In this document: positions 3,177 through 38,907 of the stretch, piece by piece
Layout of the letters: every line of letters begins with the position of its first letter
Position numbering within the stretch: the first letter of the stretch is position 1
Sequence record: PQ758395
Strand: one strand, 5' to 3'
DNA from: Escherichia phage phita32
Length of the DNA: 64,000 bases
Position numbers and translations under genes: made by a program
The notes under the pieces: model-generated
Databases searched by the model: none
What the model was told of the DNA's origin: nothing
Seen by the model: the letters and a program-made list of their open reading frames with translations, nothing else

Positions 3177-3659
3177 ATGTCAGATTTTATGTGGAAAGTA
3201 GGTTATGCCTCTCCTGAAATGTGCGAGGCTTGCTTTGTAAAAATAGGCCGCGAGGATATTGACAAAGTAATCTTTAAGTTTCGTGATGTATCTGTGATCG
3301 GCAACCGAGTGCTTAAGCACTTAAAGAATCTGAAGCTCACCAAAAAGAAGTTCTTCGGACTTTTCGAAGAGAAAGTTGATGCTTGGACCCATTGCATTCA
3401 GGAAGCTAAATCTCACTACAGTGCTATCGTTACCCCAGAACGGGTAGCCAAGATGGAAGGATTAATCAACAGTACAGAGTTTGAGTGCCTAAAGGCTGCT
3501 CTTAATAGTTATCCAAAGTGCCTCAAACACCTTGACAAGTATGTAGAAAAGGATGGGGAAATGTATCTCACCCTGGACGCATATTATGAGATGCAAGAAA
3601 TTTTAAATTTAGATTTGACATTGGTATCCACCGAGTATACAATAGGTATCCGGGTTTAA
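3177..3659 (+). CDS. hypothetical protein
   Basis: ORF with GGAGAAGG SD; followed by intrinsic terminator. Confidence 0.45.
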   Translation: MSDFMWKVGYASPEMCEACFVKIGREDIDKVIFKFRDVSVIGNRVLKHLKNLKLTKKKFFGLFEEKVDAWTHCIQEAKSHYSAIVTPERVAKMEGLINSTEFECLKAALNSYPKCLKHLDKYVEKDGEMYLTLDAYYEMQEILNLDLTLVSTEYTIGIRV

Positions 3660-3665
3660 CACTAG

Positions 3666-3692
3666 GCCCTGCCCGAAAGGGTGGGGCTTTTT
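3666..3692 (+). terminator. rho-independent terminator (GAAA tetraloop hairpin + T5)
   Basis: GCCCTGCCC-GAAA-GGGTGGGGC 9-bp stem with two G-U pairs followed by TTTTT; same 22-nt hairpin recurs at 15391. Confidence 0.7.
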
Positions 3693-9025: not shown

Positions 9026-9301
9026 AAATAACATTGTGGCTTCATAGAGTAATCTATGTCGAATAACCTCTTTAACTGCGGGAAGCCTAAACCTTATGGC
9101 AAGGTAATCCGCAACGAAGCGCTCAAAAGAGCGAACGCTCAGAGGCCATTCCGAAAGGAAGTAGACCAGCAAGTGCGGTCGAAATGGGAGGATTCCTGTG
9201 GTTGCTTATTATAGGAATATGAGATGGTCCGATCCTACGTGAAAACGTATGGCTATGCACGTAATGGTGCGGGGTAGCTTAACGACCTACCTGAACTATT
9301 G
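9026..9301 (+). ncRNA. group I self-splicing intron (no ORF) in DNA polymerase gene
   Basis: Exon 1 ends in U (..UACCAU) pairing with intron GUGG guide at 9037-9040; intron ends in G 9301; P/Q/R/S-like core elements AACTGCGGGAAGC 9074-9086, TAATCCGCAACG 9105-9116, GCTCAGAGGCC 9137-9147, GAGATGGTCCGATCC 9221-9235; splicing restores motif C YHDEYQLQV. Confidence 0.6.
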
Positions 9302-15390: not shown

Positions 15391-15419
15391 GCCCTGCCCG
15401 AAAGGGTGGGGCATTTTTG
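15391..15419 (+). terminator. rho-independent terminator (duplicate of 3666 element)
   Basis: Identical GCCCTGCCCGAAAGGGTGGGGC hairpin followed by ATTTTTGT. Confidence 0.7.
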
Positions 15420-19674: not shown

Positions 19675-20059
19675 TTCTATCTAGCGCCCATCCCCAGTGA
19701 TTGTCTCCCCCGTCACCAGGGCCTGCCGTCCTTTCGATAGGTATATTGTGCCACCTGGCGGGGCCGCTGTCAACACCTTTCAAAAAAAAAAAATTATAAC
19801 CAGGTGCGCCCACTGCCAGGACCTGGCGGGGCCAACCTGGCAGGTCCGCGCTATAAAGTGAACAGCTACAGAAGAGGTACAAAAATGAAAGGTAATGCTA
19901 CTCACCTGGAAAATAGTAATTGATGATACGGAAGCTATCGCCCTGGTCGAGAAGGCTAAAACTGAAGCACCGGAACATAAAGAAGAGTACGAAAAACGGT
20001 GGTGATCTGGCAGGGCGGCGGCAGGTGGATTCTATCATAAAAATAATTTAAAATAATTG

Positions 20060-20088
20060 TTGACAACCGGGGGAGTCCTGCTATTCTT
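20060..20088 (+). promoter_or_regulatory. sigma70-like promoter (TTGACA-17-TATTCT)
   Basis: -35 TTGACA 20060-20065; weaker -10. Confidence 0.4.
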
Positions 20089-20138
20089 ATCCTACAAGGT
20101 GAACAACACCGCACTAACTAGTAAAGAGGATAAAAATC

Positions 20139-20351
20139 ATGAACGCATACGGAATCAAAGTACGTCGCAACACTCGCCAGGTGGTAACCGATCAAGTGGT
20201 TTGCCTGGTGGATGTAACCATCAACAACGGGCAAGGCCTTTATAAATTTCGTCGCGGTCATAGTTATACCCTGCAACAGCTTAACCGTTGCGCCCTGACA
20301 AAAGGTCAGATCAACCACTGGTTTAATAAAAAAATAAATATTGACATGTAG
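20139..20351 (+). CDS. hypothetical small protein
   Basis: ORF with AAGAGGA SD. Confidence 0.5.
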   Translation: MNAYGIKVRRNTRQVVTDQVVCLVDVTINNGQGLYKFRRGHSYTLQQLNRCALTKGQINHWFNKKINIDM

Positions 20352-20369
20352 TCTGAAACAAAATATACT
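20341..20369 (+). promoter_or_regulatory. sigma70-like promoter (TTGACA-17-TATACT)
   Basis: -35 20341-20346 overlaps the upstream stop; -10 TATACT 20364-20369. Confidence 0.55.
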
Positions 20370-20401
20370 AAAAGCACAAAAGACACTAAGAGGATAAAAT
20401 C

Positions 20402-20800
20402 ATGAAAACCACAACCTTTAATTTTGATAATGCTAACTTCTCTTTTTCTGATGTTAAGAACTGCCGCCGTGATCGCGGATTCTACAAGGCCTATAATCTG
20501 GTTGGCCTTGACGATGATAATAATTTGCACGAAGTGGCGGAGATCCGGTACTATGCCGCCGCCAGTGGTAACACTAACTACTGCGTTTTTTGGATACACG
20601 ACAACAAGAACAATAAGTACGGTTATACTGGCGGCAAGGCGAGCGGTCACGGTTATGATAAAGCCAACGCTGCACTTGAAAGCGCATTAAATGCCATGGG
20701 AATCACTGCTAACGGCTGGATCTATGAAGAAGAATTTTTGGCGGCACTTGCTGCCCACCTGGGCTATAAAAAGCACATTGTAACATGCGCCCACGAATAA
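20402..20800 (+). CDS. hypothetical protein
   Basis: ORF with AAGAGGA SD; Gly/Tyr-rich. Confidence 0.5.
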   Translation: MKTTTFNFDNANFSFSDVKNCRRDRGFYKAYNLVGLDDDNNLHEVAEIRYYAAASGNTNYCVFWIHDNKNNKYGYTGGKASGHGYDKANAALESALNAMGITANGWIYEEEFLAALAAHLGYKKHIVTCAHE

Positions 20801-20811
20801 AAAAAAAATAT

Positions 20812-20839
20812 TTGACACGCCACAAAATTTAAGTAGACT
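20812..20839 (+). promoter_or_regulatory. sigma70-like promoter (TTGACA-16-TAGACT) with leader hairpin
   Basis: -35 20812-20817, -10 20834-20839; GGCGGGAAACATCCCGCC hairpin 20849-20866 then CA-rich leader and SD. Confidence 0.5.
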
Positions 20840-20883
20840 ATATACAAAGGCGGGAAACATCCCGCCAACACAGAGGAAAAGCT

Positions 20884-21279
20884 ATGAATAAGAACGTACG
20901 CCGCATCATGAACGAACTGGCAAACGATGAAAAAATTATTGACATGCATTTGGTCAACATTTGCCGCCGTTGTGTAACATACAACAACCGCGCCGCAAAA
21001 GCGCGTGAGATGAACGCAAAAGGCACCTTAAAGCCCTTTCAGGTGGTTGTAAAATCTATAACTAATGCAGCAGGCCAGGCGCATGATCACAACAACGAGA
21101 GCACTAATATTGATCCGTCTTACGTAATGAAACGGATCCGGACTTGCAAGAATAAAGAGCAGGTGTATAACGTCATAGATTGGCTTGATTCCATGGGCGA
21201 CGTGGTTTACAATAGATTTTCTGCAGCTATTGAAATTCAGTTAGACAGGTTGGACGGGAAAGTACTAAAAACTTACTGA
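20884..21279 (+). CDS. hypothetical protein
   Basis: ORF with GAGGAAAAG SD. Confidence 0.5.
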   Translation: MNKNVRRIMNELANDEKIIDMHLVNICRRCVTYNNRAAKAREMNAKGTLKPFQVVVKSITNAAGQAHDHNNESTNIDPSYVMKRIRTCKNKEQVYNVIDWLDSMGDVVYNRFSAAIEIQLDRLDGKVLKTY

Positions 21280-21290
21280 GTTTATTTTTA

Positions 21291-21327
21291 GATGGCCTTG
21301 ACTCCAGGGCCATCAATAAAGTAAACT
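21291..21327 (+). promoter_or_regulatory. palindrome-embedded promoter (GATGGCC-TTGACT..-GGCCATC, -10 TAAACT), copy 1
   Basis: 7-bp inverted arms flank the -35; near-identical copies at 21912 and 25629. Confidence 0.45.
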
Positions 21328-21359
21328 AATCCCAGTTAAGCGAAAAAGGAGGCTTGAAG

Positions 21360-21479
21360 ATGAGCACTACACGCCAGCACACAAAGGTAACTATTATCGT
21401 TTGCATCATTGGTTATATCCTGGCGCAAATGTTGATGGGTAGCGCCAACGGTGTCGCAAAATTTTTCTTAAACTTTTAA
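21360..21479 (+). CDS. small hydrophobic peptide (39 aa, not in ORF track)
   Basis: ATG 21360 with AAAAAGGAGG SD; MSTTRQHTKVTIIVCIIGYILAQMLMGSANGVAKFFLNF. Confidence 0.4.
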   Translation: MSTTRQHTKVTIIVCIIGYILAQMLMGSANGVAKFFLNF

Positions 21480-21507
21480 TTGACAAGCTAACTTAGATCA
21501 GTATACT
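21480..21507 (+). promoter_or_regulatory. sigma70-like promoter (TTGACA-16-TATACT)
   Basis: -35 21480-21485, -10 21502-21507. Confidence 0.55.
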
Positions 21508-21558
21508 AAACACATAAACGGGAAAACTTCCCAGAACACACAAAAGGAGAAAAACACC

Positions 21559-21900
21559 ATGACTACTATGACCGCCGCAGAAAAAGCTATTCAGGTTGCA
21601 GCACTGAAAAAACAGATCGCAGACCTTGAGAACAAGATCGATAACTTTGAAATCGACGAGGACAAGTACGACGAAAACTATGATGAATGGTTAGACGAGA
21701 TCTACGGCGAAATTATGATCGGAAACATTTCTTTTCTTCCGTCGCGTATCCTCAAGGAGCTAGATCCTATCGCTTACCGCTGCGGATTTAGCGACTACAT
21801 CGACAGCCTGGATATTGAGGACGATGAAGAATACCAGGAATTACAGACAGAGTTGGAAGAAGCAAAAGAAGAGCTTGCAGAACTGGAAGAAAACGAGTAA
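21559..21900 (+). CDS. hypothetical acidic coiled-coil protein
   Basis: ORF with AAGGAGA SD; highly acidic C-terminus. Confidence 0.5.
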   Translation: MTTMTAAEKAIQVAALKKQIADLENKIDNFEIDEDKYDENYDEWLDEIYGEIMIGNISFLPSRILKELDPIAYRCGFSDYIDSLDIEDDEEYQELQTELEEAKEELAELEENE

Positions 21901-21911
21901 ATTTATTTTTA

Positions 21912-21948
21912 GATGGCCTTGACGCCAGGGCCATCGATAAAGTAAACT
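21912..21948 (+). promoter_or_regulatory. palindrome-embedded promoter, copy 2
   Basis: GATGGCC TTGACG CCAG GGCCATC .. TAAACT. Confidence 0.45.
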
Positions 21949-21989
21949 TTATACTGTTAACACTGAACTAATACAGAGGAGTTAAAACC

Positions 21990-22235
21990 ATGGCAGCACT
22001 AATCACCAAATACTATGCACCGACCAACACCAAAAGCGCACGCATCTTGGTAAAAGGATTCGGACGTAAAAAGGTTTACACCTGGGATTATGCCTTAGAC
22101 ATGGAAGACAACTACACCAACGCGATGACAGATTTTATTAATGAACTAAATAAACAGATCTTAACCAATTATAAGGTGACCGACATCGCCTATGTTGGGG
22201 AAGGTGGGATCTGTTTTGTCGGTATTGTCAAATAA
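21990..22235 (+). CDS. hypothetical protein
   Basis: ORF with GAGGAG SD. Confidence 0.5.
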   Translation: MAALITKYYAPTNTKSARILVKGFGRKKVYTWDYALDMEDNYTNAMTDFINELNKQILTNYKVTDIAYVGEGGICFVGIVK

Positions 22236-22247
22236 GCTGTTTTTCGG

Positions 22248-22267
22248 TGGCCCTGGTGGCAGGGCCA
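22248..22267. promoter_or_regulatory. variant palindrome TGGCCCTG-gtgg-CAGGGCCA
   Basis: 8-bp arm hairpin/operator followed by TATAAAG; related to the GATGGCC..GGCCATC family. Confidence 0.3.
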
Positions 22268-22309
22268 TCTATAAAGATAGTTTATTAACACCATGAAAGG
22301 AGAAAGTAC

Positions 22310-22663
22310 ATGATCAGTGGGGCTAGTTTTATTATTGGCGCTATTGCTACGGCTTTAATTGTAAACAAGATCCAGGATAAAAAGGAAAGAGGAAGTACCG
22401 ACCTTGCAGAATATCCATTTTGGACATTCAATGATAACGAAGATTATATTGTAAAGTATAAAAATAAAGAAGGTGACCAAGTAACACCGCGACCGATCCC
22501 GGCTTACAAGATGCAGGAAACACTATACCGCTTGGAGGCGGGAGGCGCAAAAATTGTGGACTTTTGGGGATACGATCACACAGATCAGGAAGTTATAAAG
22601 CGCCGTATCCGGGCTATTCAGGCCAATATTGAAGTTAGCAAGGGGGGAATATATGAAGATTAA
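22310..22663 (+). CDS. putative membrane-anchored protein
   Basis: N-terminal helix ISGASFIIGAIATALIVNKI; AAAGGAGAAAG SD. Confidence 0.5.
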   Translation: MISGASFIIGAIATALIVNKIQDKKERGSTDLAEYPFWTFNDNEDYIVKYKNKEGDQVTPRPIPAYKMQETLYRLEAGGAKIVDFWGYDHTDQEVIKRRIRAIQANIEVSKGGIYED

Positions 22664-22850
22664 TTTTGAGAAGATTGTAAAGCGATCTCATGATTCCGAA
22701 GAGCTGCCGGAACGCCGCCAGCGTAACAATAAACTGAATAAGCCAAAAAGATTTGGGAAGATCTGGCGGAATCATTATGATCGTAAATTGCCGGGCCTCC
22801 TTTTGGAACGTGAACGACAGGCGGAACGATACCGCCACAAAGGCAAATAA
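22653..22850 (+). CDS. hypothetical basic protein
   Basis: Start moved from track 22629 to ATG 22653 (AAGGGGGG SD); Arg/Lys-rich. Confidence 0.4.
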   Translation: MKINFEKIVKRSHDSEELPERRQRNNKLNKPKRFGKIWRNHYDRKLPGLLLERERQAERYRHKGK

Positions 22851-22859
22851 CAACCAACG

Positions 22860-22888
22860 CCCCGCTATTGTGCGGGGCTTTTTATTTC
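22860..22888 (+). terminator. rho-independent terminator
   Basis: GCCCCGC-tattgt-GCGGGGC followed by TTTTTATTT. Confidence 0.7.
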
Positions 22889-23008
22889 TATCCCGCCGAT
22901 AGCGCCCCTGGTTGGCCCCACAACGCCCTAAAGGCCCCCTACCTATGCAATCTCCTTTCTTAACCTGAAAACATCGTCAAAGGCCGTTTTAAAGCGTTAA
23001 AAATATTG

Positions 23009-23036
23009 TTGACATCTAAAATATTCTAGATATACT
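23009..23036 (+). promoter_or_regulatory. sigma70-like promoter (TTGACA-16-TATACT)
   Basis: -35 23009-23014, -10 23031-23036. Confidence 0.55.
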
Positions 23037-23071
23037 AATCACATCAAAGCGAGAAGTAAGGAGTAAACGCC

Positions 23072-23341
23072 ATGCGTAAATTGAAAAATTTTGATAAAGT
23101 CGATGTTGTCCTAAATAATTTTTACTACTGCAATAATAAAGCCGTTTGGTGGCGCGATAATTCCACCGATAAGGTTAAGGCGCGCTTTCTCCAAGGGTAC
23201 TGGCAAGGCCGTCCAGTGATTAAAATCCTGGGGCAATTGGTAGCGTTTAAAAATTGCCGCCGTGTTGACGACGTTGAAGAGATTTTAAACATTTTGCGCC
23301 ACAATAATTTAAAAATAGTGTTGACAAGTAAATATCGATAA
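23072..23341 (+). CDS. hypothetical protein
   Basis: ORF with AAGGAG SD. Confidence 0.5.
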   Translation: MRKLKNFDKVDVVLNNFYYCNNKAVWWRDNSTDKVKARFLQGYWQGRPVIKILGQLVAFKNCRRVDDVEEILNILRHNNLKIVLTSKYR

Positions 23342-23348
23342 GTATACT
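23321..23348 (+). promoter_or_regulatory. sigma70-like promoter (TTGACA-16-TATACT) with leader hairpin
   Basis: -35 23321-23326 inside 3' end of upstream gene; GGCGGGAAAACTTCCCGCC hairpin 23359-23377. Confidence 0.55.
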
Positions 23349-23405
23349 TAAACACACAGGCGGGAAAACTTCCCGCCACTAACAAAGAAAATAGGAGAAA
23401 ATATC

Positions 23406-24029
23406 ATGACCACCGTTAACATTACTACAGGTTACAATTTATCTTTCGACGTGCTGACCGACGAACAAAAAGAAAAAGCCGTTGAAATGGTCCGCGAAAG
23501 AGAAGAACACAGCGGGGATAACTTTTTTGCAGAAAGTGTAATTGAATACTATAAAGAGTATGTTTTTCCAGAGTACGGGCTTGAAGATACAGAGGTACAT
23601 TGGTCCGGCTTTTGGTGCCAGGGTGACGGCGCGTCAATCAGTGCTGAAAACGTGGACTTAGAAAAATTCTTGCGTAAAGTCAAGTCTCTGACTAAATTCC
23701 GCTCAATTCGCCACTTGTTCGGCACAATGCATGACGGGGAATTATCAGCCAGTGTTGAACGTGACACATACAGCCGCTATAGTCACGAAAACACTGTAAA
23801 CGGATACATCGATACTACTTGGCTAGACCTAACCGCCAAACAAGAAAACAAAGTGGAAGATTTGGAAGAGCTGATCACCGAGACGGTACGGGAGTTATCC
23901 CGCAAGGTTTACGTAGACTTGGAAGCGGCCTATTTGGAGCAATTCACATCTGAAAACTTGATCGGCCTTATCGAGGCCAATGATTGGCGGTTTGATGTCG
24001 ATGAATATGGTGAGATGACTTTTTCATAA
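23406..24029 (+). CDS. hypothetical acidic protein (207 aa)
   Basis: ORF with AGGAGAAAA SD; no motif assigned. Confidence 0.5.
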   Translation: MTTVNITTGYNLSFDVLTDEQKEKAVEMVREREEHSGDNFFAESVIEYYKEYVFPEYGLEDTEVHWSGFWCQGDGASISAENVDLEKFLRKVKSLTKFRSIRHLFGTMHDGELSASVERDTYSRYSHENTVNGYIDTTWLDLTAKQENKVEDLEELITETVRELSRKVYVDLEAAYLEQFTSENLIGLIEANDWRFDVDEYGEMTFS

Positions 24030-24037
24030 ATAAAGTG

Positions 24038-24065
24038 TTGCAATAACCTAAAAACCTGTTATATT
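24038..24065 (+). promoter_or_regulatory. sigma70-like promoter (TTGCAA-16-TATATT) with leader hairpin
   Basis: GGGGGCAAGACGTTTGCCCC hairpin 24075-24094. Confidence 0.45.
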
Positions 24066-24118
24066 AAAACTCAAGGGGGCAAGACGTTTGCCCCACACAA
24101 AACAAAGAGGAAAACATC

Positions 24119-24499
24119 ATGAAAAACACTACTAAAGCTATTGACACCGTTATGTTTAACCTGGTTACCTTTCGCGAGGATATGAAAGATCTTCCACGTG
24201 AAACAGTGTGCGACCATATCGAAAACTATCGCAAACTAATCAAAGAGTTGCCTTTAAAACGTGACCAGTATGCGGCTAACGCTATGCTTAACGCTATGAT
24301 CAAAAAGATGATCCAGTGTGATTTAACTCTGGCCTATGATTATGCAGGTGGTCGTTTTGCAGTATACAATCGGCCCGTGCCTGGTATGAGCACCACCGAA
24401 GAATTGCACGCGCTCAATCTAAAACAAGACGTGTGGGATAGTATGCCCCGCGTGGTGGTGTGGGCAGAAAGCGGAAAGATTTACGGCGATAATTTTTAA
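24119..24499 (+). CDS. hypothetical protein
   Basis: ORF with AGAGGAAAA SD. Confidence 0.5.
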   Translation: MKNTTKAIDTVMFNLVTFREDMKDLPRETVCDHIENYRKLIKELPLKRDQYAANAMLNAMIKKMIQCDLTLAYDYAGGRFAVYNRPVPGMSTTEELHALNLKQDVWDSMPRVVVWAESGKIYGDNF

Positions 24500-24509
24500 T
24501 CAGGTAACA

Positions 24510-24538
24510 GGCGGCGGCATATTTGCCGCCTTATTGTT
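24510..24538 (+). terminator. probable rho-independent terminator
   Basis: GGCGGC-atattt-GCCGCC then TTATTGTT. Confidence 0.55.
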
Positions 24539-24566
24539 AAACAGAACTGTAAAAGAGGTACATAGA

Positions 24567-24926
24567 ATGGAATTTATTATTCTGACTGTATTAGTTGCCT
24601 TGTTCAACGCCTGGATCGCTGGCAAGGTAGGCAGATCCGCTTTCTTATGGTTTATTATATCTATTTTCCTGGGAGTGGTTGCAACTATCATATTGGTTAT
24701 CCTTGCAATTGTTGACAAAGGTAATAATAGAAAGGGTAAAGTATTTTCCGACCTGTATGACGCACAAACGTTCGTCAACGCCTATTATGGTGATCTCCCG
24801 GTATCCCTACGCTGCAGCCTGGCACAACAGGTTTTTGATGAAGCTAAAACCAGAGATCAAGCCCATGAGATATGTTTAACTGAGGCGGATCGCCTATTTG
24901 AGAGGAATAGAAAATATGTGGGCTAA
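24567..24926 (+). CDS. putative membrane protein (two TM helices)
   Basis: Start moved from track 24534 to ATG 24567 (AAGAGG SD); helices IILTVLVALFNAWIAG and FLWFIISIFLGVVATIILVILAIV. Confidence 0.5.
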   Translation: MEFIILTVLVALFNAWIAGKVGRSAFLWFIISIFLGVVATIILVILAIVDKGNNRKGKVFSDLYDAQTFVNAYYGDLPVSLRCSLAQQVFDEAKTRDQAHEICLTEADRLFERNRKYVG

Positions 24927-25161
24927 CCGTTTAAATAACTCCGCGCTAATTAATCCCTTTAGTGAAGATTTGAAGCCAGCCGCCTGGCGTGATGGATTCA
25001 ATACCGAAGGATTTATTTTCAGGCCTGATCTTGAGGAATTTTATAACAATGGATCGAACAACGACAGAGATAATTTTTCTTGTGATGTGCGTAGCGATGG
25101 TACTCCTGGGGGCCATTGCAAACCACATCACTACTACCAGGGGGAAAGGGGGAGACGATGA
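24916..25161 (+). CDS. hypothetical protein (uncertain)
   Basis: ORF with GAGAGGAA SD; overlapping alternative-frame ORF 24989..25174 makes the assignment ambiguous. Confidence 0.25.
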   Translation: MWANRLNNSALINPFSEDLKPAAWRDGFNTEGFIFRPDLEEFYNNGSNNDRDNFSCDVRSDGTPGGHCKPHHYYQGERGRR

Positions 25162-25277
25162 CAACCAAGGATAAGCCCCGCACCGATAAGGCGCGCCGGG
25201 TTATGGTATGGCTTGAGATCATCGCCCTTGAAATATTGCTAGGCGTAGGGATGTACTTTATCGCTGTAAGTAACTAA
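25158..25277 (+). CDS. small membrane peptide (39 aa, not in ORF track)
   Basis: ATG 25158 with AGGGGGAAAGGGGGAG SD; MTTKDKPRTDKARRVMVWLEIIALEILLGVGMYFIAVSN; terminator follows. Confidence 0.4.
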   Translation: MTTKDKPRTDKARRVMVWLEIIALEILLGVGMYFIAVSN

Positions 25278-25282
25278 GAACG

Positions 25283-25310
25283 GCCCCCGATCATGGGGGC
25301 TTATCTTTTT
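25283..25310 (+). terminator. rho-independent terminator
   Basis: GCCCCC-gatcat-GGGGGC then TTATCTTTTT. Confidence 0.7.
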
Positions 25311-25332
25311 AAAAAATTTCCCTTCCAGGGTG

Positions 25333-25361
25333 TTGCAATCCGGTCCGCAATATGGATAATA
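25333..25361 (+). promoter_or_regulatory. sigma70-like promoter (TTGCAA .. GATAAT) with leader hairpin
   Basis: GGGGAGCTAATCCCC hairpin downstream; same architecture at 26149. Confidence 0.45.
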
Positions 25362-25416
25362 ACAATCAACGGGGAGCTAATCCCCACCAACACAAAAACC
25401 AGAAAGGAGAAACAAA

Positions 25417-25617
25417 ATGAGCAACAATATCCGCGTTATTAACTTCAAAAAAGAAGAAAAAATTGCCGTGCTGATTGACGGTCAAGAAATCTTCAAGGGC
25501 TATTATGAAGATCATCAAACGGCGATTAGTATCACTCGCGTGATCGGTTACCATAATTTCTACCCCCAAGGCGCTGAGGCAGCGGTTAAACGAATCAAAG
25601 AGATTGTAGGCCTGTAA
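25417..25617 (+). CDS. hypothetical small protein
   Basis: ORF with AAAGGAGAAA SD. Confidence 0.5.
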   Translation: MSNNIRVINFKKEEKIAVLIDGQEIFKGYYEDHQTAISITRVIGYHNFYPQGAEAAVKRIKEIVGL

Positions 25618-25628
25618 ATTTATTTTTA

Positions 25629-25665
25629 GATGGCCTTGACTCCAGGGCCATCAATAAAGTAAATT
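25629..25665 (+). promoter_or_regulatory. palindrome-embedded promoter, copy 3
   Basis: GATGGCC TTGACT CCAG GGCCATC .. TAAATT; near-identical to 21291 copy. Confidence 0.45.
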
Positions 25666-25707
25666 TTAATCGTGATAAAATAATCAGTGCAAAAAGGAGT
25701 AATGATC

Positions 25708-26007
25708 ATGTTCATACCCGCCAATAATCTTTATTTCTTTGATGGTCAAATCGTAGACGGTGTGGAGGTGGAGATCACCGGGTGCCCTGGTGGTCAGGTT
25801 ATGACTTTCCGGAATAATGCCTTTGATGATTCTCATATCGTTATGAGAATGGAAGTTAGTAAGCTAGATGATAAGAAAACATTGATTGACTATTCCGTCA
25901 AAGATCATCCAGACTACCACATGATCTATGGTGATTTGTGCATTGTTGACCGTGACAAGGTGGGCGGCATTGTGATCGCTATTGTGAACGATGTTTTCTC
26001 TGTATAG
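25708..26007 (+). CDS. hypothetical protein
   Basis: Start moved from track 25687 to ATG 25708 (AAGGAG SD 8 nt upstream). Confidence 0.5.
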   Translation: MFIPANNLYFFDGQIVDGVEVEITGCPGGQVMTFRNNAFDDSHIVMRMEVSKLDDKKTLIDYSVKDHPDYHMIYGDLCIVDRDKVGGIVIAIVNDVFSV

Positions 26008-26065
26008 TTCCGGTAAATGATGCAAAATAAGGCCCCTAGCAGGGCCTGCAGCGATATAATCACAT

Positions 26066-26100
26066 AAAGGCCATGCAACCGCATGGCCTTTATTATTTTG
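26066..26100 (+). terminator. rho-independent terminator
   Basis: AAAGGCCATGC-aacc-GCATGGCCTTT then ATTATTTTG. Confidence 0.6.
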
Positions 26101-26148
26101 GCGTTACAGCGGCCCCCAAGGTGCTTAAAAAATTTTTTAAAGAAGTAC

Positions 26149-26177
26149 TTGCATCAAGCCCTACAATATGGATAATA
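26149..26177 (+). promoter_or_regulatory. sigma70-like promoter (TTGCAT .. GATAAT) with leader hairpin
   Basis: GGGGGCGGCCCCC hairpin downstream. Confidence 0.45.
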
Positions 26178-26232
26178 GGACGTGTCGGGGGGCGGCCCCC
26201 AATCATTAACCGGATAGATAGGAGTTAAAATC

Positions 26233-26517
26233 ATGGCTATTGTTACCGTTGGCGATGTAGTAGAAATGGAAGCAAAATACTTAAAAGCGGGTATGCATAT
26301 CCTACGGAATGATCAAGAGTTACTATTAACGATGGTCGACTATAATCCCGGCCAGGATTATCCAAGCATCGACTACTTTTTTGAGTATGTTGATGAAGAG
26401 TTGAAAGAGGATGAGGCCTATTGCGGTGAGTTCTGCAACTTCTTTTGTCCTGATGAGGTTGTAAAGGTTATTTATCAACCTGGCGTAGCTTTCCCGCTGC
26501 ACGCTATCAATAAATAA
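26233..26517 (+). CDS. hypothetical protein
   Basis: ORF with AGGAG SD. Confidence 0.5.
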   Translation: MAIVTVGDVVEMEAKYLKAGMHILRNDQELLLTMVDYNPGQDYPSIDYFFEYVDEELKEDEAYCGEFCNFFCPDEVVKVIYQPGVAFPLHAINK

Positions 26518-26582
26518 ACCTGGCGGGGCCGAAAAGGCCCCTACAGCATAAAATCATAAAAAATAAAGAGAGGCAAATCATC

Positions 26583-26816
26583 ATGATGGAACAAATTAAA
26601 CGCGCCGAGGCTATTAATGGCAATGTGATCTATTTTGTTAGCAATAACGAAAAAGGCGTACCATATGCAGCGGTAATAGTGCAGCCTGACGGCGATTATT
26701 GGTTTACTGTATACGGATCTTATTCTTTCGGGCGTCCGGTGCATGATAGAATTTTAAAAGTAGCTAATCCAACCGGGAAGAATATCACAGCAGAAAAATT
26801 TTTTGAAAATAGTTGA
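26583..26816 (+). CDS. hypothetical protein
   Basis: ORF with AGAGAGG SD; GGGGCCGAAAAGGCCCC hairpin upstream. Confidence 0.5.
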   Translation: MMEQIKRAEAINGNVIYFVSNNEKGVPYAAVIVQPDGDYWFTVYGSYSFGRPVHDRILKVANPTGKNITAEKFFENS

Positions 26817-26840
26817 CATGACCGTATAAGACTGTAGTAT
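26813..26840 (+). promoter_or_regulatory. sigma70-like promoter (TTGACA-16-TAGTAT) with leader hairpin
   Basis: -35 overlaps stop of upstream gene; GGGGGCAAGCCCC hairpin 26851-26863. Confidence 0.55.
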
Positions 26841-26889
26841 ATAAATCAAAGGGGGCAAGCCCCACCAACCACAAAGAGGATAAAAAATC

Positions 26890-27069
26890 ATGGCTATTAT
26901 TGCAAAGACCGAGATTTTAGGTTTAGATTCTATTCTCCTGGCATACGAGGAAGCTATAGAAATGTATGTGGTTTCCTATGGTGAGTATATCCGTGAATAT
27001 GAATCTATTGATCTAGCTTTTGAATGTTATATTCACCAGGTAAATAAGGCATATGATGATTATCGTTAA
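26890..27069 (+). CDS. hypothetical small protein (59 aa, not in ORF track)
   Basis: ATG 26890 with AAGAGGATAAAAAA SD. Confidence 0.4.
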   Translation: MAIIAKTEILGLDSILLAYEEAIEMYVVSYGEYIREYESIDLAFECYIHQVNKAYDDYR

Positions 27070-27151
27070 AATAGTTTGACAACAGTCAACAATCTGGTAA
27101 AGTGTACTACATAGCGCGGGAATACTTCCCGCCATTAATGAGGGTAATTTA

Positions 27152-27298
27152 ATGAAAACTTTCAACGCAACGGCCTCGACAATTGGTTATATTATTACAG
27201 TACAAGCCGTGGATCTGGTAGCAGCAGCAAACAAGATTAAAAAGATGATTCCGCCAGGCAGTGAATTTTCCGTTTGGGAAGTAAAAAATAAATCTTGA
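27152..27298 (+). CDS. hypothetical small protein (48 aa, not in ORF track)
   Basis: ATG 27152 downstream of GCGCGGGAATACTTCCCGCC leader hairpin and GAGGGTAA SD. Confidence 0.35.
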   Translation: MKTFNATASTIGYIITVQAVDLVAAANKIKKMIPPGSEFSVWEVKNKS

Positions 27299-27322
27299 CG
27301 ATAATTTGTTATCTGATAGAAT
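27295..27322 (+). promoter_or_regulatory. sigma70-like promoter (TTGACG-16-TAGAAT) with leader hairpin
   Basis: GGGCG..CGCCC hairpin 27335-27358. Confidence 0.5.
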
Positions 27323-27382
27323 GTATTTCGTAGGGCGGGGAAATAAGGCAACGCCCCACATCAACCGGAAGAGGAAAACAAG

Positions 27383-27619
27383 ATGAGTATTGCGACAATA
27401 TTAACCGCTGTTAAAACCGCTGAACGTTCCGGCCTGCAAGTTGAGATTATAGATCAACCAGGTGGCGATCTCCTTGTCCAAGTTTACCCGCCGAAAGTAG
27501 GGGATGATTATTATTGGTGTTATTCTGATACGTTCGAACAAGTAGACACGAAAGCAATAACCGCCTTTATTTTAAAAGCCGTTGAAGAAAATAACTTGCA
27601 CAATAACGTCAATCAATAA
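27383..27619 (+). CDS. hypothetical protein
   Basis: ORF with AAGAGGAAAA SD. Confidence 0.5.
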   Translation: MSIATILTAVKTAERSGLQVEIIDQPGGDLLVQVYPPKVGDDYYWCYSDTFEQVDTKAITAFILKAVEENNLHNNVNQ

Positions 27620-27673
27620 ACCATAAGCGAAGTGGTAACGCCCCATTAAACGCAATAGAAAGAGGATAACTAC

Positions 27674-27778
27674 ATGAAACAGAAATTAATTGATGCGGTG
27701 ATCCTGGTTATTGCCCTAGGTATTGGCCTGATTGCAACCATGGCTAATATGATCTTGTCTTCCAACGGTATCGGATAA
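27674..27778 (+). CDS. small membrane peptide (34 aa, not in ORF track)
   Basis: ATG 27674 with AAGAGGATAA SD; MKQKLIDAVILVIALGIGLIATMANMILSSNGIG. Confidence 0.35.
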   Translation: MKQKLIDAVILVIALGIGLIATMANMILSSNGIG

Positions 27779-27787
27779 GGTGGGCAA

Positions 27788-28003
27788 ATGATCACCAACA
27801 AAACAGGCAAAACAGAATTTTTACGCAACTTGCAGATCGGCAAGCCTGAGATCTGGTATTGCACTAAAACACCACGTGACGAAATGAAAGACTTCACCGC
27901 CACGCTGCAACGGGTGAAGATATCTATCACACAGAAAAAGGCCTTACTAGTGGTGGAAGGTGAGATCCCCCAAACCGTTGTTATAGTTGAGCGTACAGCA
28001 TAG
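27788..28003 (+). CDS. hypothetical protein
   Basis: ORF with AAGGTGGG SD. Confidence 0.45.
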   Translation: MITNKTGKTEFLRNLQIGKPEIWYCTKTPRDEMKDFTATLQRVKISITQKKALLVVEGEIPQTVVIVERTA

Positions 28004-28094
28004 TTTAATTTATACAGATACCTGAAAATTAACCAACAAAGCATAAACAGGCGGTTACCGCCGCCTTAAACGTAGCAGAAAGAGGATAGACACA

Positions 28095-28379
28095 ATGAAA
28101 AAGATGATCGCAGTGGTTTCCCTGGTTGTTGGACTTAATGCGCCTGTAATGGCTAAAGAGCTGGCAAAAGAGGTTGATCTAACGGATATCCATGCCGTCA
28201 ATCAAATCGGGGTTACTTATCGCTTATGCCTTGCCGCTAAAACTTTTAATGACGGCACAACAGAGTACTACGGATTCGAGGGTATCCGGTGCGGTGAGCT
28301 TGCTCGCGACCTTAAGGAAGATCCAGACCTGGAAGATCTGCCCATCACCGTAAACGGTAAAGCTTACGTAGACCGTTAA
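28095..28379 (+). CDS. putative secreted/periplasmic protein
   Basis: N-terminal signal-peptide-like MKKMIAVVSLVVGLNAPVMA; AAGAGGATAG SD. Confidence 0.5.
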   Translation: MKKMIAVVSLVVGLNAPVMAKELAKEVDLTDIHAVNQIGVTYRLCLAAKTFNDGTTEYYGFEGIRCGELARDLKEDPDLEDLPITVNGKAYVDR

Positions 28380-28381
28380 CC

Positions 28382-28522
28382 ATGAGAAAGATAATCATCA
28401 CCTTGGGGATTGTGGTAGCAATATTGGCGCTCTTTCCCCTTATGGTTAGATATGTGCTGATACGTGCTGTTCTAGTGGTCAGCGATCTGGTGTTATATAT
28501 ATATATTAACTTACTGTTTTAG
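28382..28522 (+). CDS. small hydrophobic peptide (46 aa, not in ORF track)
   Basis: ATG 28382 directly after upstream stop; MRKIIITLGIVVAILALFPLMVRYVLIRAVLVVSDLVLYIYINLLF. Confidence 0.3.
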   Translation: MRKIIITLGIVVAILALFPLMVRYVLIRAVLVVSDLVLYIYINLLF

Positions 28523-28718
28523 GTGCGATAATGACCACTGATGAAGCTGTAAAAGTGTTGGCGGTATTGAGATAACATAATCAGACAAAAGTTATAAACG
28601 ATCCTGATTATGTTGACTCAAAGCGTGAAGATGAGACATTGACCGCAATAGGGATTATTCAAGAATTGCTAAAGCGCATGACAGAGAAAAACCGACCTGA
28701 CTACATAGGGGGTAAAAT

Positions 28719-29030
28719 ATGATCGCTATTACGCCAACCGTTTTAGATTGGTATCGGCAACGCATAGCGCTTCCGCTGGCTATCTTCAAAGATGCGGAAG
28801 CAAAACAACGCCGGATCTCAATACATGAGATCATCAACCTTAACGCTGGAGGCACACCATACCGTCCAGGACCTGGCCGTGAGATGGACAATACGTTAGC
28901 GATCCTGAAGATACGCCGTAAACGGTCCTCCCTTACGCTGGACTCATTACACACAATGCAGTCTCCGTTCCAGGTGACCGGGAAACGGATCGCCAGGTCC
29001 TGGACAAAGGCCAATGATCGGACCGTATAA
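28719..29030 (+). CDS. hypothetical protein (uncertain; lies in GC-rich repeat-containing segment)
   Basis: ORF with AGGGGGTAAAAT SD on the array strand; region carries CCAGGACCTGG / CCAGGTCCTGG inverted motifs and could be non-coding. Confidence 0.3.
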   Translation: MIAITPTVLDWYRQRIALPLAIFKDAEAKQRRISIHEIINLNAGGTPYRPGPGREMDNTLAILKIRRKRSSLTLDSLHTMQSPFQVTGKRIARSWTKANDRTV

Positions 29031-29117
29031 ATAAAAAGTGTTTTGGTACTGATTTTGGGGTTGACTTGTTCGGCCCCTTTTGCTATTCTTATTAAACGGG
29101 CGGCACTTGGGAACAGG

Positions 29118-29140
29118 GGGAGACAATCACCGGGCCTGCC
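29118..29140 (-). repeat. GC-rich 23-bp element (inverted right copy)
   Basis: Plus strand GGGAGACAATCACCGGGCCTGCC is the reverse complement of 19553-19575. Confidence 0.45.
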
Positions 29141-29165
29141 TGTCATATAAGAACTATAAAAACCT

Positions 29166-29194
29166 TTGACATCTGCCATGGGGTGAGGTAACAT
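29166..29194 (+). promoter_or_regulatory. sigma70-like promoter (TTGACA-17-TAACAT) with leader hairpin
   Basis: GGGGGCAAAAGTGCCC hairpin downstream. Confidence 0.5.
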
Positions 29195-29249
29195 TTATCT
29201 TGAAGGGGGCAAAAGTGCCCACACAACAACCAGGAGAGAGGAAAACACT

Positions 29250-29522
29250 ATGTCAAGCTGGATTAATCAAGAAGTCGAATCACGTTTTAATGCTATTTGG
29301 GATCTCATCGAAAAAGAGGACGGAACATCAAGCCCCTACCTCAACAATTTGGAATTCCATTTTGTGGAAGCGATGAACGCAGAACATGATCACGAAGGTG
29401 GCGCGGATGAGTTCGCTAAAGGTTATGGCTTTAACAATGCCAACGAAATGATCGAGGCGGTAGTACTCCAGGCTGAGGAAGATTATCAATTAAAAACTCT
29501 TGAATTCTGCCGCCGCAAGTAA
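29250..29522 (+). CDS. hypothetical protein
   Basis: ORF with AGGAGAGAGGAAAA SD. Confidence 0.5.
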   Translation: MSSWINQEVESRFNAIWDLIEKEDGTSSPYLNNLEFHFVEAMNAEHDHEGGADEFAKGYGFNNANEMIEAVVLQAEEDYQLKTLEFCRRK

Positions 29523-29582
29523 TAAGATAATGACACGGGCCGAAAGGCCCACTAATCAAGATCACATAGAGAGGAAAACATC

Positions 29583-29846
29583 ATGAAACGCATCGATCAG
29601 CTTAAAGTAGTTCAACATATGGCTTACCGTATCCTTGAAGTTCAAAAAGGCAGCAAAAAAGAAGTTTGTGAAAAAGCCTATAAAATTTTCACCCGCAAAA
29701 AGGACGACTGGATGTTACGCCAGACTAAAAAGGACGATATCTTGGGATACTTGGAAGAAGAGATCCGCCTTGCCGAGCAAGAAGAGATCCGCCGTGATGA
29801 AGCAGAATATCAGGCAAGTTGGGAATACTGGATGAATAACAAGTAA
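29583..29846 (+). CDS. hypothetical protein
   Basis: ORF with AGAGAGGAAAA SD; GGGCC-GAAA-GGCCC hairpin upstream. Confidence 0.5.
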   Translation: MKRIDQLKVVQHMAYRILEVQKGSKKEVCEKAYKIFTRKKDDWMLRQTKKDDILGYLEEEIRLAEQEEIRRDEAEYQASWEYWMNNK

Positions 29847-29907
29847 TACAGCAAGCCATGCAACCAGGGCGAAAGCCCCTTGATTCTGAAAAATAATGCT
29901 ATCCTTA

Positions 29908-29936
29908 TTGACAAGGATCGGCAGTTTTGCTATATT
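29908..29936 (+). promoter_or_regulatory. sigma70-like promoter (TTGACA-17-TATATT)
   Basis: -35 29908-29913, -10 29931-29936. Confidence 0.55.
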
Positions 29937-29983
29937 CTTTTTCAGAAGGAAGTTGTAAGAAAATTATCTAAGAGGTAAACACC

Positions 29984-30403
29984 ATGAATATTAAATCTAA
30001 CAATCCCGCATACAGCTTTGATAACGCTTTTTGTCACGGCCCAGCCGCAAAAGGTTTTGAAATTGATGGTAAACTGGTTATTGTGAATGTTGACGGGGAA
30101 GAGGTTGCAGTATATCCGGTGGCAGACGTTAAAAGCCGTTTACAATGCCGCATTGATGTTACCGCATATCAGCTTGATCCGGTCCGCGTAGTTGCCCTGG
30201 TCCTGGAGGAAGAAATCAAAGCGATGCACCATAGTAACAGGTTTATTGGTGACGCGCAGGATAATATGAAGGTGTGCCGTTATAAAGTTAATGAAGTGCT
30301 TAAAGAATATGGATTTAAGGATCTGATGATCAAACGTGATGAAAAATTTCGTTATCGTAACGACCTGGCAAATCGAATCTATGAAATATACGAATCATTA
30401 TAA
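29984..30403 (+). CDS. hypothetical protein
   Basis: ORF with AAGAGGTAAA SD; last gene of the rightward array. Confidence 0.5.
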   Translation: MNIKSNNPAYSFDNAFCHGPAAKGFEIDGKLVIVNVDGEEVAVYPVADVKSRLQCRIDVTAYQLDPVRVVALVLEEEIKAMHHSNRFIGDAQDNMKVCRYKVNEVLKEYGFKDLMIKRDEKFRYRNDLANRIYEIYESL

Positions 30404-30421
30404 TTTTTTAACTGAATTATC

Positions 30422-30448
30422 AAGGGGCTTAAAGCCCCTTTCTTTTTG
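30422..30448 (+). terminator. rho-independent terminator
   Basis: AAGGGGCTT-t-AAGCCCCTT hairpin then TCTTTTTG. Confidence 0.7.
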
Positions 30449-30449
30449 T

Positions 30450-38513: not shown

Positions 38514-38831
38514 TCATTCTCCAAAGTCAATCTTTACTTTGCCTTTCCCCTTACCTTTCTTTCCACCGCATTTAGCCAGCTGACGTGCTGCAACATCTAC
38601 CATACGGTCAGTTGCCTCGTAAGCATCACTACCTTTAGCCTTGGCAATAACTTCTTTTCCAGAATTGTCAAAAATGAGCGCCATAACTCCCTGGTGATCA
38701 TTTTCAACTTTTACACTCACACGTGCATAGTTGGCAGAGGGGTGCAAACGCTCCAGCTTAGACATTTTGTGGGAAATGAAAGACACCATACCTTCAGTGA
38801 TTTCTACGTTGCCAGTGATTTCAATTTGCAT
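38514..38831 (-). CDS. ribosome hibernation promoting factor / RaiA (YfiA) family protein
   Basis: MQIEITGNVEITEGM..KLERL..VSVKVEN..AKGSDAYEATDRMVDVAARQLAK aligns along its length with E. coli HPF/RaiA (MQLNITGNNVEITEAL..KLEQY..VVLKVEK..AEGQDMYAAIDGLIDKLARQLTK). Confidence 0.75.
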   Translation of the reverse strand: MQIEITGNVEITEGMVSFISHKMSKLERLHPSANYARVSVKVENDHQGVMALIFDNSGKEVIAKAKGSDAYEATDRMVDVAARQLAKCGGKKGKGKGKVKIDFGE

Positions 38832-38878
38832 AACGTGTTCCTTTTAAAGAAGAGGGAACCAAACCCTCTTTGAAAACA

Positions 38879-38907
38879 ATGATACTAAATCTGAAGCGTT
38901 GTGTCAA
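38879..38907 (-). promoter_or_regulatory. sigma70-like promoter, minus strand (TTGACA-17-TATCAT) for the HPF gene
   Basis: Minus-strand -35 is the complement of 38902-38907, -10 of 38879-38884; AGAGGG..CCCTCT leader hairpin 38850-38869. Confidence 0.55.

Follow-up and report, generated by a model that had tools for sequence, protein, structure and literature searches.

The window analyzed here is a stretch of 64,000 nucleotides from Escherichia phage phita32 (sequence record PQ758395), an rV5-like phage (genus Vequintavirus, subfamily Vequintavirinae), and our subject is a leader element repeated in it, a promoter followed closely by a GC-rich hairpin. By gene calling, the plus-strand genes occupy 1-30.4 kb and the minus-strand genes 33-64 kb, and the gap that separates the two groups is gene-poor. 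The hairpin leaders form an array in the final 10 kb of the plus-strand unit (20.0-30.4 kb), where the genes are small orphans; a Pfam scan of nine array genes, eight of them hairpin-led, gave no match above the cutoff. Bases 20500-29500 match ~250 GenBank phage records, and the best matches (92-94% identity) come from the Escherichia phages nimi, rV5, and Murica and from their relatives. The annotations of related genomes include predicted promoters in the array (Gotham and rV5) and terminators elsewhere (Murica), and hairpins of the present type are annotated in none of these three records. In the rV5 genome paper, which tabulates 33 promoters and 20 terminators, post-promoter hairpins go unmentioned, and our literature search found no description of such hairpins in these phages.

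Every intergenic leader of the array was tabulated, yielding 14 leaders with a sigma-70-type promoter. A clear GC hairpin is present in nine of these (at 20849, 23359, 24076, 25371, 26187, 26851, 27116, 27333, and 29207), and a weaker one at 21520-21533 raises the count to 10 of 14. Nine hairpins behind promoters had been proposed in an earlier reading made without database searches (the sequence-only reading), and all nine exist, with the exact stems given below. Two of the proposed coordinates were ~5-10 nt off, 25360 being the last −10 base of a leader whose stem begins at 25371, and 29201 lying ahead of a stem that begins at 29207. Most small early genes of the array share one compact cassette, composed of a host-type promoter, a GC hairpin, an A/C-rich spacer, and a ribosome site. 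The promoters are sigma-70-like, scoring 9-11 of 12, with the form TTGACA/TTGCAA-16/17-TAnnnT and AAAATAGT-like AT-rich tracts upstream.

All ten cassettes lie on the plus strand. In the first (20812-20886), the −35 hexamer TTGACA (20812-20817) and the −10 hexamer TAGACT (20834-20839) are followed after 9 nt by the hairpin GGCGGGAaacaTCCCGCC (20849-20866; predicted folding free energy (ΔG) −14.3 kcal/mol, z −5.1), the spacer AACAC, the Shine–Dalgarno (SD) sequence AGAGG, and an ATG at 20884; orthologs keep this stem and change its loop. The second (21480-21561) joins TTGACA-16-TATACT, with the −10 ending at 21507, to the weak hairpin GGGAAaacTTCCC 12 nt further on (21520-21533; ΔG −5.5), the spacer AGAACACACAA, the SD AAGGAG, and an ATG at 21559. 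It is invariant among orthologs and a weak match to the covariance model R1 described below. A 10 nt gap separates the promoter of the third cassette (23321-23408; TTGACA-16-TATACT, −10 end 23348) from the hairpin GGCGGGAAaacTTCCCGCC at 23359-23377 (ΔG −14.6, z −6.4), after which come ACTAACAAAGAAAAT, AGGAG, and the ATG at 23406. The same gap recurs in the fourth (24038-24121), where TTGCAA-16-TATATT (−10 end 24065) precedes GGGGCAAgacgtTTGCCCC at 24076-24094 (ΔG −12.5), the spacer ACACAAAACAA, the SD AGAGG, and the ATG at 24119; its orthologs in HMD-6 and SYGMH1 read GGCGGGCGAgacgtTTGCCCGCC, a longer stem with pairing intact. The fifth (25333-25419), also with a gap of 10 nt, has TTGCAA-16-GATAAT (−10 end 25360), the hairpin GGGGAgctaaTCCCC at 25371-25385 (ΔG −9.3, z −5.3; orthologs GGGGAGacaCTCCCC and GGGGAaacaTCCCC), the spacer ACCAACACAAAAACCAGA, the SD AAGGAG, and the ATG at 25417.

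The sixth cassette (26149-26235) has TTGCAT-16-GATAAT (−10 end 26176) and, after 10 nt, the hairpin GGGGGgcggCCCCC at 26187-26200; its spacer, AATCATTAACCGGATAGAT, is not CA-rich and leads to the SD AGGAG and an ATG at 26233. In the seventh (26813-26892), TTGACA-16-TAGTAT (−10 end 26840) is followed at a distance of 10-11 nt by GGGGgcaagCCCC (26851-26863; ΔG −7.9; loop length variable among orthologs), then by ACCAACCACAA, AGAGG, and the ATG at 26890. The promoter of the eighth (27076-27154) is TG-extended (TTGACA-16-TAAAGT, −10 end 27103); the hairpin GCGGGAAtacTTCCCGC lies 12 nt away at 27116-27132 and matches the covariance model with 34.8 bits, and CATTAAT, GAGGG, and an ATG at 27152 complete the leader. 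The ninth (27295-27385) carries an irregular hairpin, GGGCG and CGCCC around a 14-nt loop (27333-27356; ΔG −12.3), 10 nt past TTGACG-16-TAGAAT (−10 end 27322), with the spacer CACATCAACCGGA, the SD AGAGG, and the ATG at 27383; a homologous module is found in phage phi92 (L008, 20012) at 81% identity. The tenth (29166-29252), whose promoter TTGACA-17-TAACAT (−10 end 29194) is P168 in the rV5 record, has a gap of 12 nt, the hairpin GGGCAaaagTGCCC at 29207-29220 (ΔG −8.2), the spacer ACACAACAACC, the SD AGGAGAGAGG, and the ATG at 29250.

Hairpin stability ranges from −5.5 to −14.6 kcal/mol across the ten cassettes, and the stem starts 9-12 nt past the last −10 base in all of them, with the far end of the hairpin 22-35 nt away; the distance of 20-30 nt past the −10 assumed in the sequence-only reading is incorrect for the stem start. 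The other distances are loose, at 6-20 nt to the SD and 17-179 nt to the upstream stop codon. Hairpin placement is tied to the promoter. We defined a qualifying stem as one with at least four G:C pairs that starts 9-12 nt past the −10. Such stems follow 9 of the 14 array promoters, compared with per-position rates of 0.0093 in the window (binomial P 1e-15) and 0.021 in the array (P 1.4e-12), and they follow only 2 of the 27 other promoter-like leaders of the window (Fisher P 2.3e-4), one of them that of a gene homologous to HPF. This confinement to the orphan-gene array, and the behavior of the module as a portable cassette described below, go beyond the earlier proposal.

A similarity search with one window cassette returned orthologs only, so the cassettes are not a high-identity repeat. 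The stems comprise at least four unrelated sequences, and the loops measure 3-14 nt (AAC, TAC, AACA, GCTAA, GCGG, and similar). A pyrimidine–purine step (C-A or T-G) occupies positions 7-8 past the −10 in most cassettes; with the start predicted at position 8, the 5′ overhang would be 2-5 nt in all cassettes and 3 nt in six of the ten. The pooled hairpin-to-SD spacer contains 55% A, 28% C, 7% G, and 10% T versus 33/20/23/25 for the region. An explicit ACAC or CAAC run occurs in ~6 of 9 cassettes, and the ACACAA/CAACAC tract, previously ascribed to every leader, holds for about that number of hairpins but not for those at 26187 and 27116.

Several known types of element were compared with the hairpins. 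The 9 nt after each sense stem contain 0-3 T, with no run of three or more, so the hairpins are not terminators of their own transcripts, and sense-strand intrinsic terminators were ruled out; the missing T tract also argues against efficient intrinsic termination of upstream transcription. Deletion of the hairpin in silico left the unpaired probability of the SD and AUG unchanged, in primary and read-through transcripts. The hairpin is therefore a self-contained 5′ element and not a ribosome-binding site (RBS) switch, and an insulator or riboswitch-like role was rejected on this predicted accessibility. Translational enhancement, one of three functions raised in the sequence-only reading, is for the same reason not a role of the hairpin itself, but the A/C-rich spacer may be an enhancer. 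Dimeric DNA operators were excluded on half-site spacing, which varies from 8 to at least 11 nt, and on several stems that lack a GGCGG motif; lambda nut sites were excluded because the sense strand of the array has no boxA-like match and the loops are not boxB-like. A scan of the whole window against Rfam 15 at the gathering thresholds assigned no family to the hairpins and found only a group I intron elsewhere, and a permissive Rfam scan of 19900-30500 gave three chance-level matches, none centered on a hairpin.

We favor a reading in which the hairpin is a 5′-terminal stem-loop that shields early mRNAs from 5′-end-dependent decay, within a portable promoter–hairpin–RBS cassette, and we put its probability at roughly 50%. 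The unit runs from an AT-rich tract through a near-consensus sigma-70 promoter, 9-12 nt, a GC stem-loop of 5-9 bp, and an A/C-rich, G/U-poor spacer of 5-19 nt to a strong SD and the ATG, occupying the entire intergenic gap. The predicted start for host RNA polymerase is the conserved pyrimidine–purine step 6-8 nt past the −10. Placed just inside the transcript, the hairpin would form the 5′ terminus of the mRNA made from its own cassette, would be transcribed first, and would sit 2-5 nt from the triphosphate end. So short a single-stranded 5′ end would offer too little to RppH and to the 5′-monophosphate sensor of RNase E, the expected result being a longer life of the short early mRNAs, and the unstructured A/C-rich spacer would keep the ribosome site single stranded and open.

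Stem-loops within 2-4 nt of the 5′ end stabilize ompA and papA mRNA. In the ompA work of Emory et al. (1992), the stem-loop reportedly had to be within 2-4 nt of the end, a requirement that the predicted overhang (3 nt in six cassettes, 2-5 nt in all) would match. Protection of the 5′ end, which the sequence-only reading had listed among its three functions, is the best fit to the anatomy (the tight −10 gap, the short predicted overhang, and the kept structure). The sequence data establish this anatomy, its statistical excess, its restriction to the orphan-gene array, its conservation across genera, and its independence from the RBS fold; where transcription starts, whether the hairpin folds in vivo, and how it affects stability are inferred. 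RNase E cleavage is much faster when a 5′-monophosphate is accessible, and RppH requires unpaired 5′ nucleotides (reviewed in PMC3997798, whose citations also cover 5′ stem-loop stabilizers). The rV5 paper identifies a Srd homolog, gp11; T4 Srd stimulates RNase E against host mRNA, and phage mRNA is stabilized. Together these would give a plausible, if speculative, setting for early-mRNA protection.

Comparison of related phages shows that structure persists as sequence varies, among window stems, orthologs, and paralogs alike. At 14 Vequintavirus loci, orthologous leaders retain the hairpin almost everywhere despite sequence change. Loops are exchanged (aaca to tgt at 20849; gctaa to aca at 25371), and the stem at 24076 is extended on both sides, from GGGGCAA/TTGCCCC to GGCGGGCGA/TTGCCCGCC. 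One stem position of the 26187 orthologs passes through the series G-C, G-U, and A-U (GGGGG/CCCCC, GGGGG/CCTCC, and GGAGG/CCTCC), a compensatory change. A few ortholog copies are weakened, and one, that of 26851 in Gotham, is lost. Separately, the 5′-arm G run in orthologs of 26187 and 26851 (L005, L028, L004, and others) varies from 4 to ~17 G between close relatives, a spread that might reflect either true slippage or errors made in sequencing homopolymers for the deposited records. A covariance model (A6/R1), built from ten real sequences, replaced MAFFT alignments, which were not structure-consistent; within the window it matches only four promoter hairpins and one terminator-like hairpin. 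Among 49 unique sense matches aligned to the model, one pair is G-C in 32, C-G in 11, and U-A in 1, and the outer pair is G-C in 26, G-U in 10, and A-U in 3. Covariation across related phages is therefore present as a few compensatory changes but formally thin.

Cassettes also appear to move as units. Alignment of the array with seven relatives revealed a break at 27113-27123, shared by most relatives and falling within the 5′ arm of the hairpin at 27116, and others at 23009-23014 (in a −35 hexamer) and at 29551-29586, where the leader is repeated on either side of an inserted gene; two other breaks, at 26000/26020 and 28390/28530, lie away from promoter cassettes. Positions 26580-27683, with three cassettes, are 85-88% identical to the phi92-like phages phi92 (L008) and ESCO13 (L016), the rest of the array being unshared, which suggests that whole cassettes are exchanged across subfamilies. 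In V18 and YP-6, the 23359 leader is replaced by one of the 21520 type. On these comparisons, the cassette would be a unit of gene gain, loss, and exchange between related phages.

Such mobility could also mean that the stem-loop acts at the level of DNA or of read-through transcription, as a recombination hot spot, an attenuator, or a 3′-end barrier, and that its 5′ position is incidental. It would then be a promoter-early stem-loop (PeSL) cassette in the strict sense. The PeSL cassettes of the T4-type phages RB49/phi1, PST/T4, and nt-1/KVP40 have the same parts, are described as behaving in the way seen here, and had recombination mapped to the stem-loop (Arbiol et al. 2010, PMC2839356; Comeau et al. 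2014, PMC4122927). Breaks inside modules, hairpin types swapped between orthologous leaders, whole promoter–hairpin–gene units held in common with phi92-like phages at 81-88% identity, limitation to the orphan-gene array with absence at other promoters, and promoter-less hairpins directly after stop codons would all be expected. Homologous recombination, however, needs identity and not pairing, and it is pairing that survives sequence change. Moreover, the hairpins have no T tract, a hairpin past its own start site would stop its own transcript along with upstream ones, and the −10 distance is fixed, whereas the distance to the upstream stop codon varies. We consider this explanation unlikely, and it is compatible with 5′-end protection rather than exclusive of it.

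The module extends beyond the rV5-like phages. In phages of another subfamily, Stephanstirmvirinae, it is found at 8 of 11 early leaders (phi92) and at 17 of 20 (ESCO13), typically as TTGACA-16-TAAnAT-GTATCACATAG-GGCGGCAATGGTGCCGCTC followed by an A-rich spacer and SD, a form more uniform than that of the window. For the window, phi92, and ESCO13 together, 34 of 44 early leaders fold at or below −7 kcal/mol with the GC core starting 8-13 nt past the −10. A 48-nt phi92-type query matched 1087 places in 224 phage records, with 10-14 per Stephanstirmvirinae genome and mostly at unannotated positions. In Pectobacterium phage phiTE (Certrevirus), the module occurs at ~4 of 17 promoter-like sites, including GTATCACATAGGGCGGCAATGACGCCGCC. 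The hairpin-less early leaders of phiTE (L030, 10300-16100) are still strongly C/A-rich, for example ACCGCCATACCAAACAAACAAGCAAACGAGG, so an A/C-rich leader is a general early-gene trait and the hairpin an add-on. An IMG/VR pattern scan for TTGACA...GGCGGGAA...TTCCCGCC returned 7 useful loci and a protein-anchored locus search 2, and GenBank phage records were used instead. By these searches, the module is highly non-random, and its conservation spans two subfamilies and at least four genera.

This breadth bears on whether the leader and hairpin are a recognition tag, bound by a phage or host protein such as an N/boxB-like factor, a factor that marks self during host shut-off, or a late repressor. 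The leader GTATCACATAG-GGCGGCAATGGTGCCGC is near-invariant in phi92, ESCO13, and phiTE, with up to 17 hairpin leaders per genome and different hosts; its uniformity exceeds the needs of the stem, and a place just past the start site suits a factor that binds nascent RNA. In one version of this idea, the leader, AUAG-GGCGGCAAUGGUGCCGC in phi92, ESCO13, and phiTE and less uniform among rV5-like phages, would mark early transcripts as self. A conserved factor of phage or host origin would read the mark and spare or boost these messages during the destruction of host mRNA, perhaps through RNase E under stimulation by the Srd homolog; alternatively, it would equip RNA polymerase for elongation or antitermination at every early promoter. 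A common regulator had also been put forward in the sequence-only reading. A single sequence-specific one is unlikely in the window phage because the stems are unrelated, with at least four sequences, and the loops range from 3 to 14 nt; for the more uniform version in phi92, ESCO13, and phiTE, such a regulator may act. The hairpins have no boxA-like sequence nearby, no boxB-like loops, and no Rfam match; recent cassette duplication or gene conversion would explain the phi92-type uniformity equally well; and with one promoter per gene, antitermination is not obviously needed. The tag, including its self-marking version, is in our estimate improbable.

An effect on transcription itself, in which the nascent hairpin aids promoter clearance or prevents backtracking or promoter-proximal pausing, would suit near-consensus promoters (10-11 of 12), at which escape is typically limiting, and a hairpin fixed relative to the −10 that would leave the exit channel at ~+30. 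Promoters of equal strength nevertheless lack the hairpin (20341, 23009, 29908, 17541, and 48211), no direct precedent can be cited, and we regard this effect as quite improbable. Antisense termination, for which the minus-strand hairpin would use as its tail the T-rich stretch complementary to the −10 and discriminator, is very doubtful: a simple terminator scan did list several minus-strand entries and 5 of 10 antisense tails have 5-6 T in 9 nt with TTT runs, but the other five are not T-rich, phi92-type stems have the tail TATGTGATAC, the minus strand has neither genes nor promoters within 1-30 kb, and the convergent unit already ends in a strong bidirectional terminator (30422-30440).

Several observations weigh against 5′-end protection itself. 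Four of the 14 array promoters, all on the plus strand, are internal negative cases: the leader of 20060 (region 20060..20404) has only the trivial 4-bp stem GGTGaacaaCACC at 20098 (ΔG −4.4), and those of 20341, 23009, and 29908 have no hairpin. Nearly all other sigma-70-like promoters of the phage are likewise bare, and the hairpin is therefore no general requirement for early expression. Conversely, three promoter-less plus-strand hairpins begin 7-45 nt past a stop codon inside operons, at 26525-26541 (GGGGCCgaaaaGGCCCC, 7 nt past the stop codon), 28049-28066, and 29537-29550; none has a T tail, and each is followed by an A-rich spacer and SD. Hairpin, spacer, and SD can thus sit within a polycistronic unit, and these copies may be half-cassettes in decay or may serve internally in processing or stability. 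In 3-4 cassettes the overhang could reach 5 nt, a length that would make protection weaker, and the literature yielded no transcript-start data for Vequintavirus or Phapecoctavirus, so that the start site is a prediction.

The sequence comparisons also contain adverse points. A stem pair is a C.A mismatch in eight unique sequences, and MAFFT with RNAalifold, applied to paralogs and to orthologs (the latter ~90% identical), gave a single compensatory pair. Formal covariation is real, if modest, and almost entirely escaped the MAFFT-based tests. Sense and antisense stability differ across three phages (Wilcoxon P 0.0036), a result driven by G.U pairs in phi92-type stems; within the window the two strands are equally stable, and the eight C.A mismatches point in the opposite direction. 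Selection at the RNA level is likely, not proven. Finally, GTATCACATAGGGCGGCAATG is near-identical between E. coli and Pectobacterium phages, beyond what structure alone needs. Our confidence in 5′-end protection stays at about one half because the start sites and the effect on half-life are predictions, the hairpin is missing at many strong promoters, and similar hairpins lie inside operons.

Outside the array, the minus-strand gene 38514-38831 encodes a homolog of the ribosome hibernation factor family (PF02482, Ribosomal_S30AE, E 2.7e-12). Its leader (38829..38907, minus strand) has TTGACA-17-TATCAT, a gap of 8-9 nt, the hairpin AAGAGGGtttggttCCCTCTT at 38870-38850, then CTTTAAAAGGAAC, and an ATG at 38831. 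It had been described as having the same layout as the array leaders; the promoter and the hairpin (38850-38870) bear this out, but CTTTAAAAGG follows the hairpin and there is no CA tract.

A second repeated intergenic cassette is present on the plus strand at 21285-21325, 21906-21946, and 25623-25663, with a variant at 22246-22269. It reads TTTTTA-GATGGCC-TTGAC(T/G)CCAG-GGCCATC-(A/G)ATAAAGTAAA, with a −35-like TTGAC inside the hairpin loop and TAAACT or TAAATT 18 nt further on, and it is annotated as a terminator in Murica and as a promoter in Gotham. The repeat resembles both PeSLs and the promoter-coupled terminators discussed below. Beyond the array, the gene-poor gap at 30400-33000, which separates the convergent plus- and minus-strand units, contains short ORFs only and no tRNA genes; the map in the rV5 paper likewise has a "non-coding" box. 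The group I intron lies at 9016-9251 on the plus strand (RF00028, 63 bits, E 1.2e-13), between or within the plus-strand ORFs 6602-9031 and 9056-9214. Two terminator hairpins of the same sequence, GCCCTGCCCGAAAGGGTGGGGC with TTTTT after it, occur at 3666-3687 and 15391-15412 (plus strand). The first begins 21 nt past a strong promoter-like site (TTGACA-17-TACAAT at 3615), an arrangement that could produce a very short transcript or act as an attenuator.

The rV5 and phi92 groups include many widely isolated phages that serve as candidates for therapy, and their early regions consist of hypothetical proteins whose regulation is undescribed. A shared promoter–hairpin–RBS cassette offers a handle on the expression and protection of early messages, and it marks the exchange units of orphan, possibly anti-defense, genes, even between subfamilies. 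The leaders also make up a ready-made family of compact, strong, insulated expression cassettes. If the start sites are confirmed, they would be among the clearest natural cases of a virus that equips most of its early genes with 5′ stem-loops, and they would carry the PeSL idea past the T4-like phages in a form whose stem-loop is placed differently, with different functional consequences.

Among known systems, lambda nut sites also place a short GC hairpin in the nascent early transcript near an early promoter, but the present hairpins have no boxA nearby and no boxB purine-rich pentaloop, occur once per gene and not once per operon, and are accompanied by no identified N-like protein. In the promoter-coupled terminators of bacteria (Fletcher et al., preprint, 10.64898/2026.08.19.745784), as here, hairpin and promoter are packed together into a few tens of bases of a tandem intergenic region. 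There, however, the stem-loop DNA is the −35, the T tract acts as spacer, and the RNA from upstream stops ~10 bp short of the following start site, a geometry that resembles the second repeat (21285, 21906, and 25623) and not the cassette hairpins.

The closest relatives are PeSL cassettes. These share with the present leaders an AT-rich tract, a near-consensus sigma-70 early promoter, a GC stem-loop (Gn-loop-Cn in RB49), and a 3′ SD and ATG. The stem-loop lies within the same ~100-bp intergenic element as the promoter (10 of 14 cassettes), the repeats are many in a plastic region of small orphan genes, and genes are gained, lost, or replaced at cassettes between close relatives. PeSL stem-loops sit ahead of the promoter, in the interval from −35 to −10, or on the −10 itself, and have been interpreted as terminating or attenuating transcription from upstream; that of the window lies 9-12 nt past the −10 in every case, is predicted to be in its own transcript, and has no T tail. 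The lineages also differ, being Vequintavirinae and Stephanstirmvirinae here and T4-like phages there. The stem-loops of ompA (hp1), papA, and T7 gene 10 are single, experimentally proven cases, the T7 case on phage polymerase promoters. Like them, the array hairpins are stable structures a few nucleotides from an RNA 5′ end (here a predicted one), with sequence free, structure kept, and an open ribosome-binding region after them, which fits decay through RppH and RNase E; unlike them, they form a family of ~10-17 copies per genome, known here from sequence. In a combination undescribed in the literature and records searched, the array leaders join two known ideas, the PeSL cassette and the 5′ stem-loop stabilizer.

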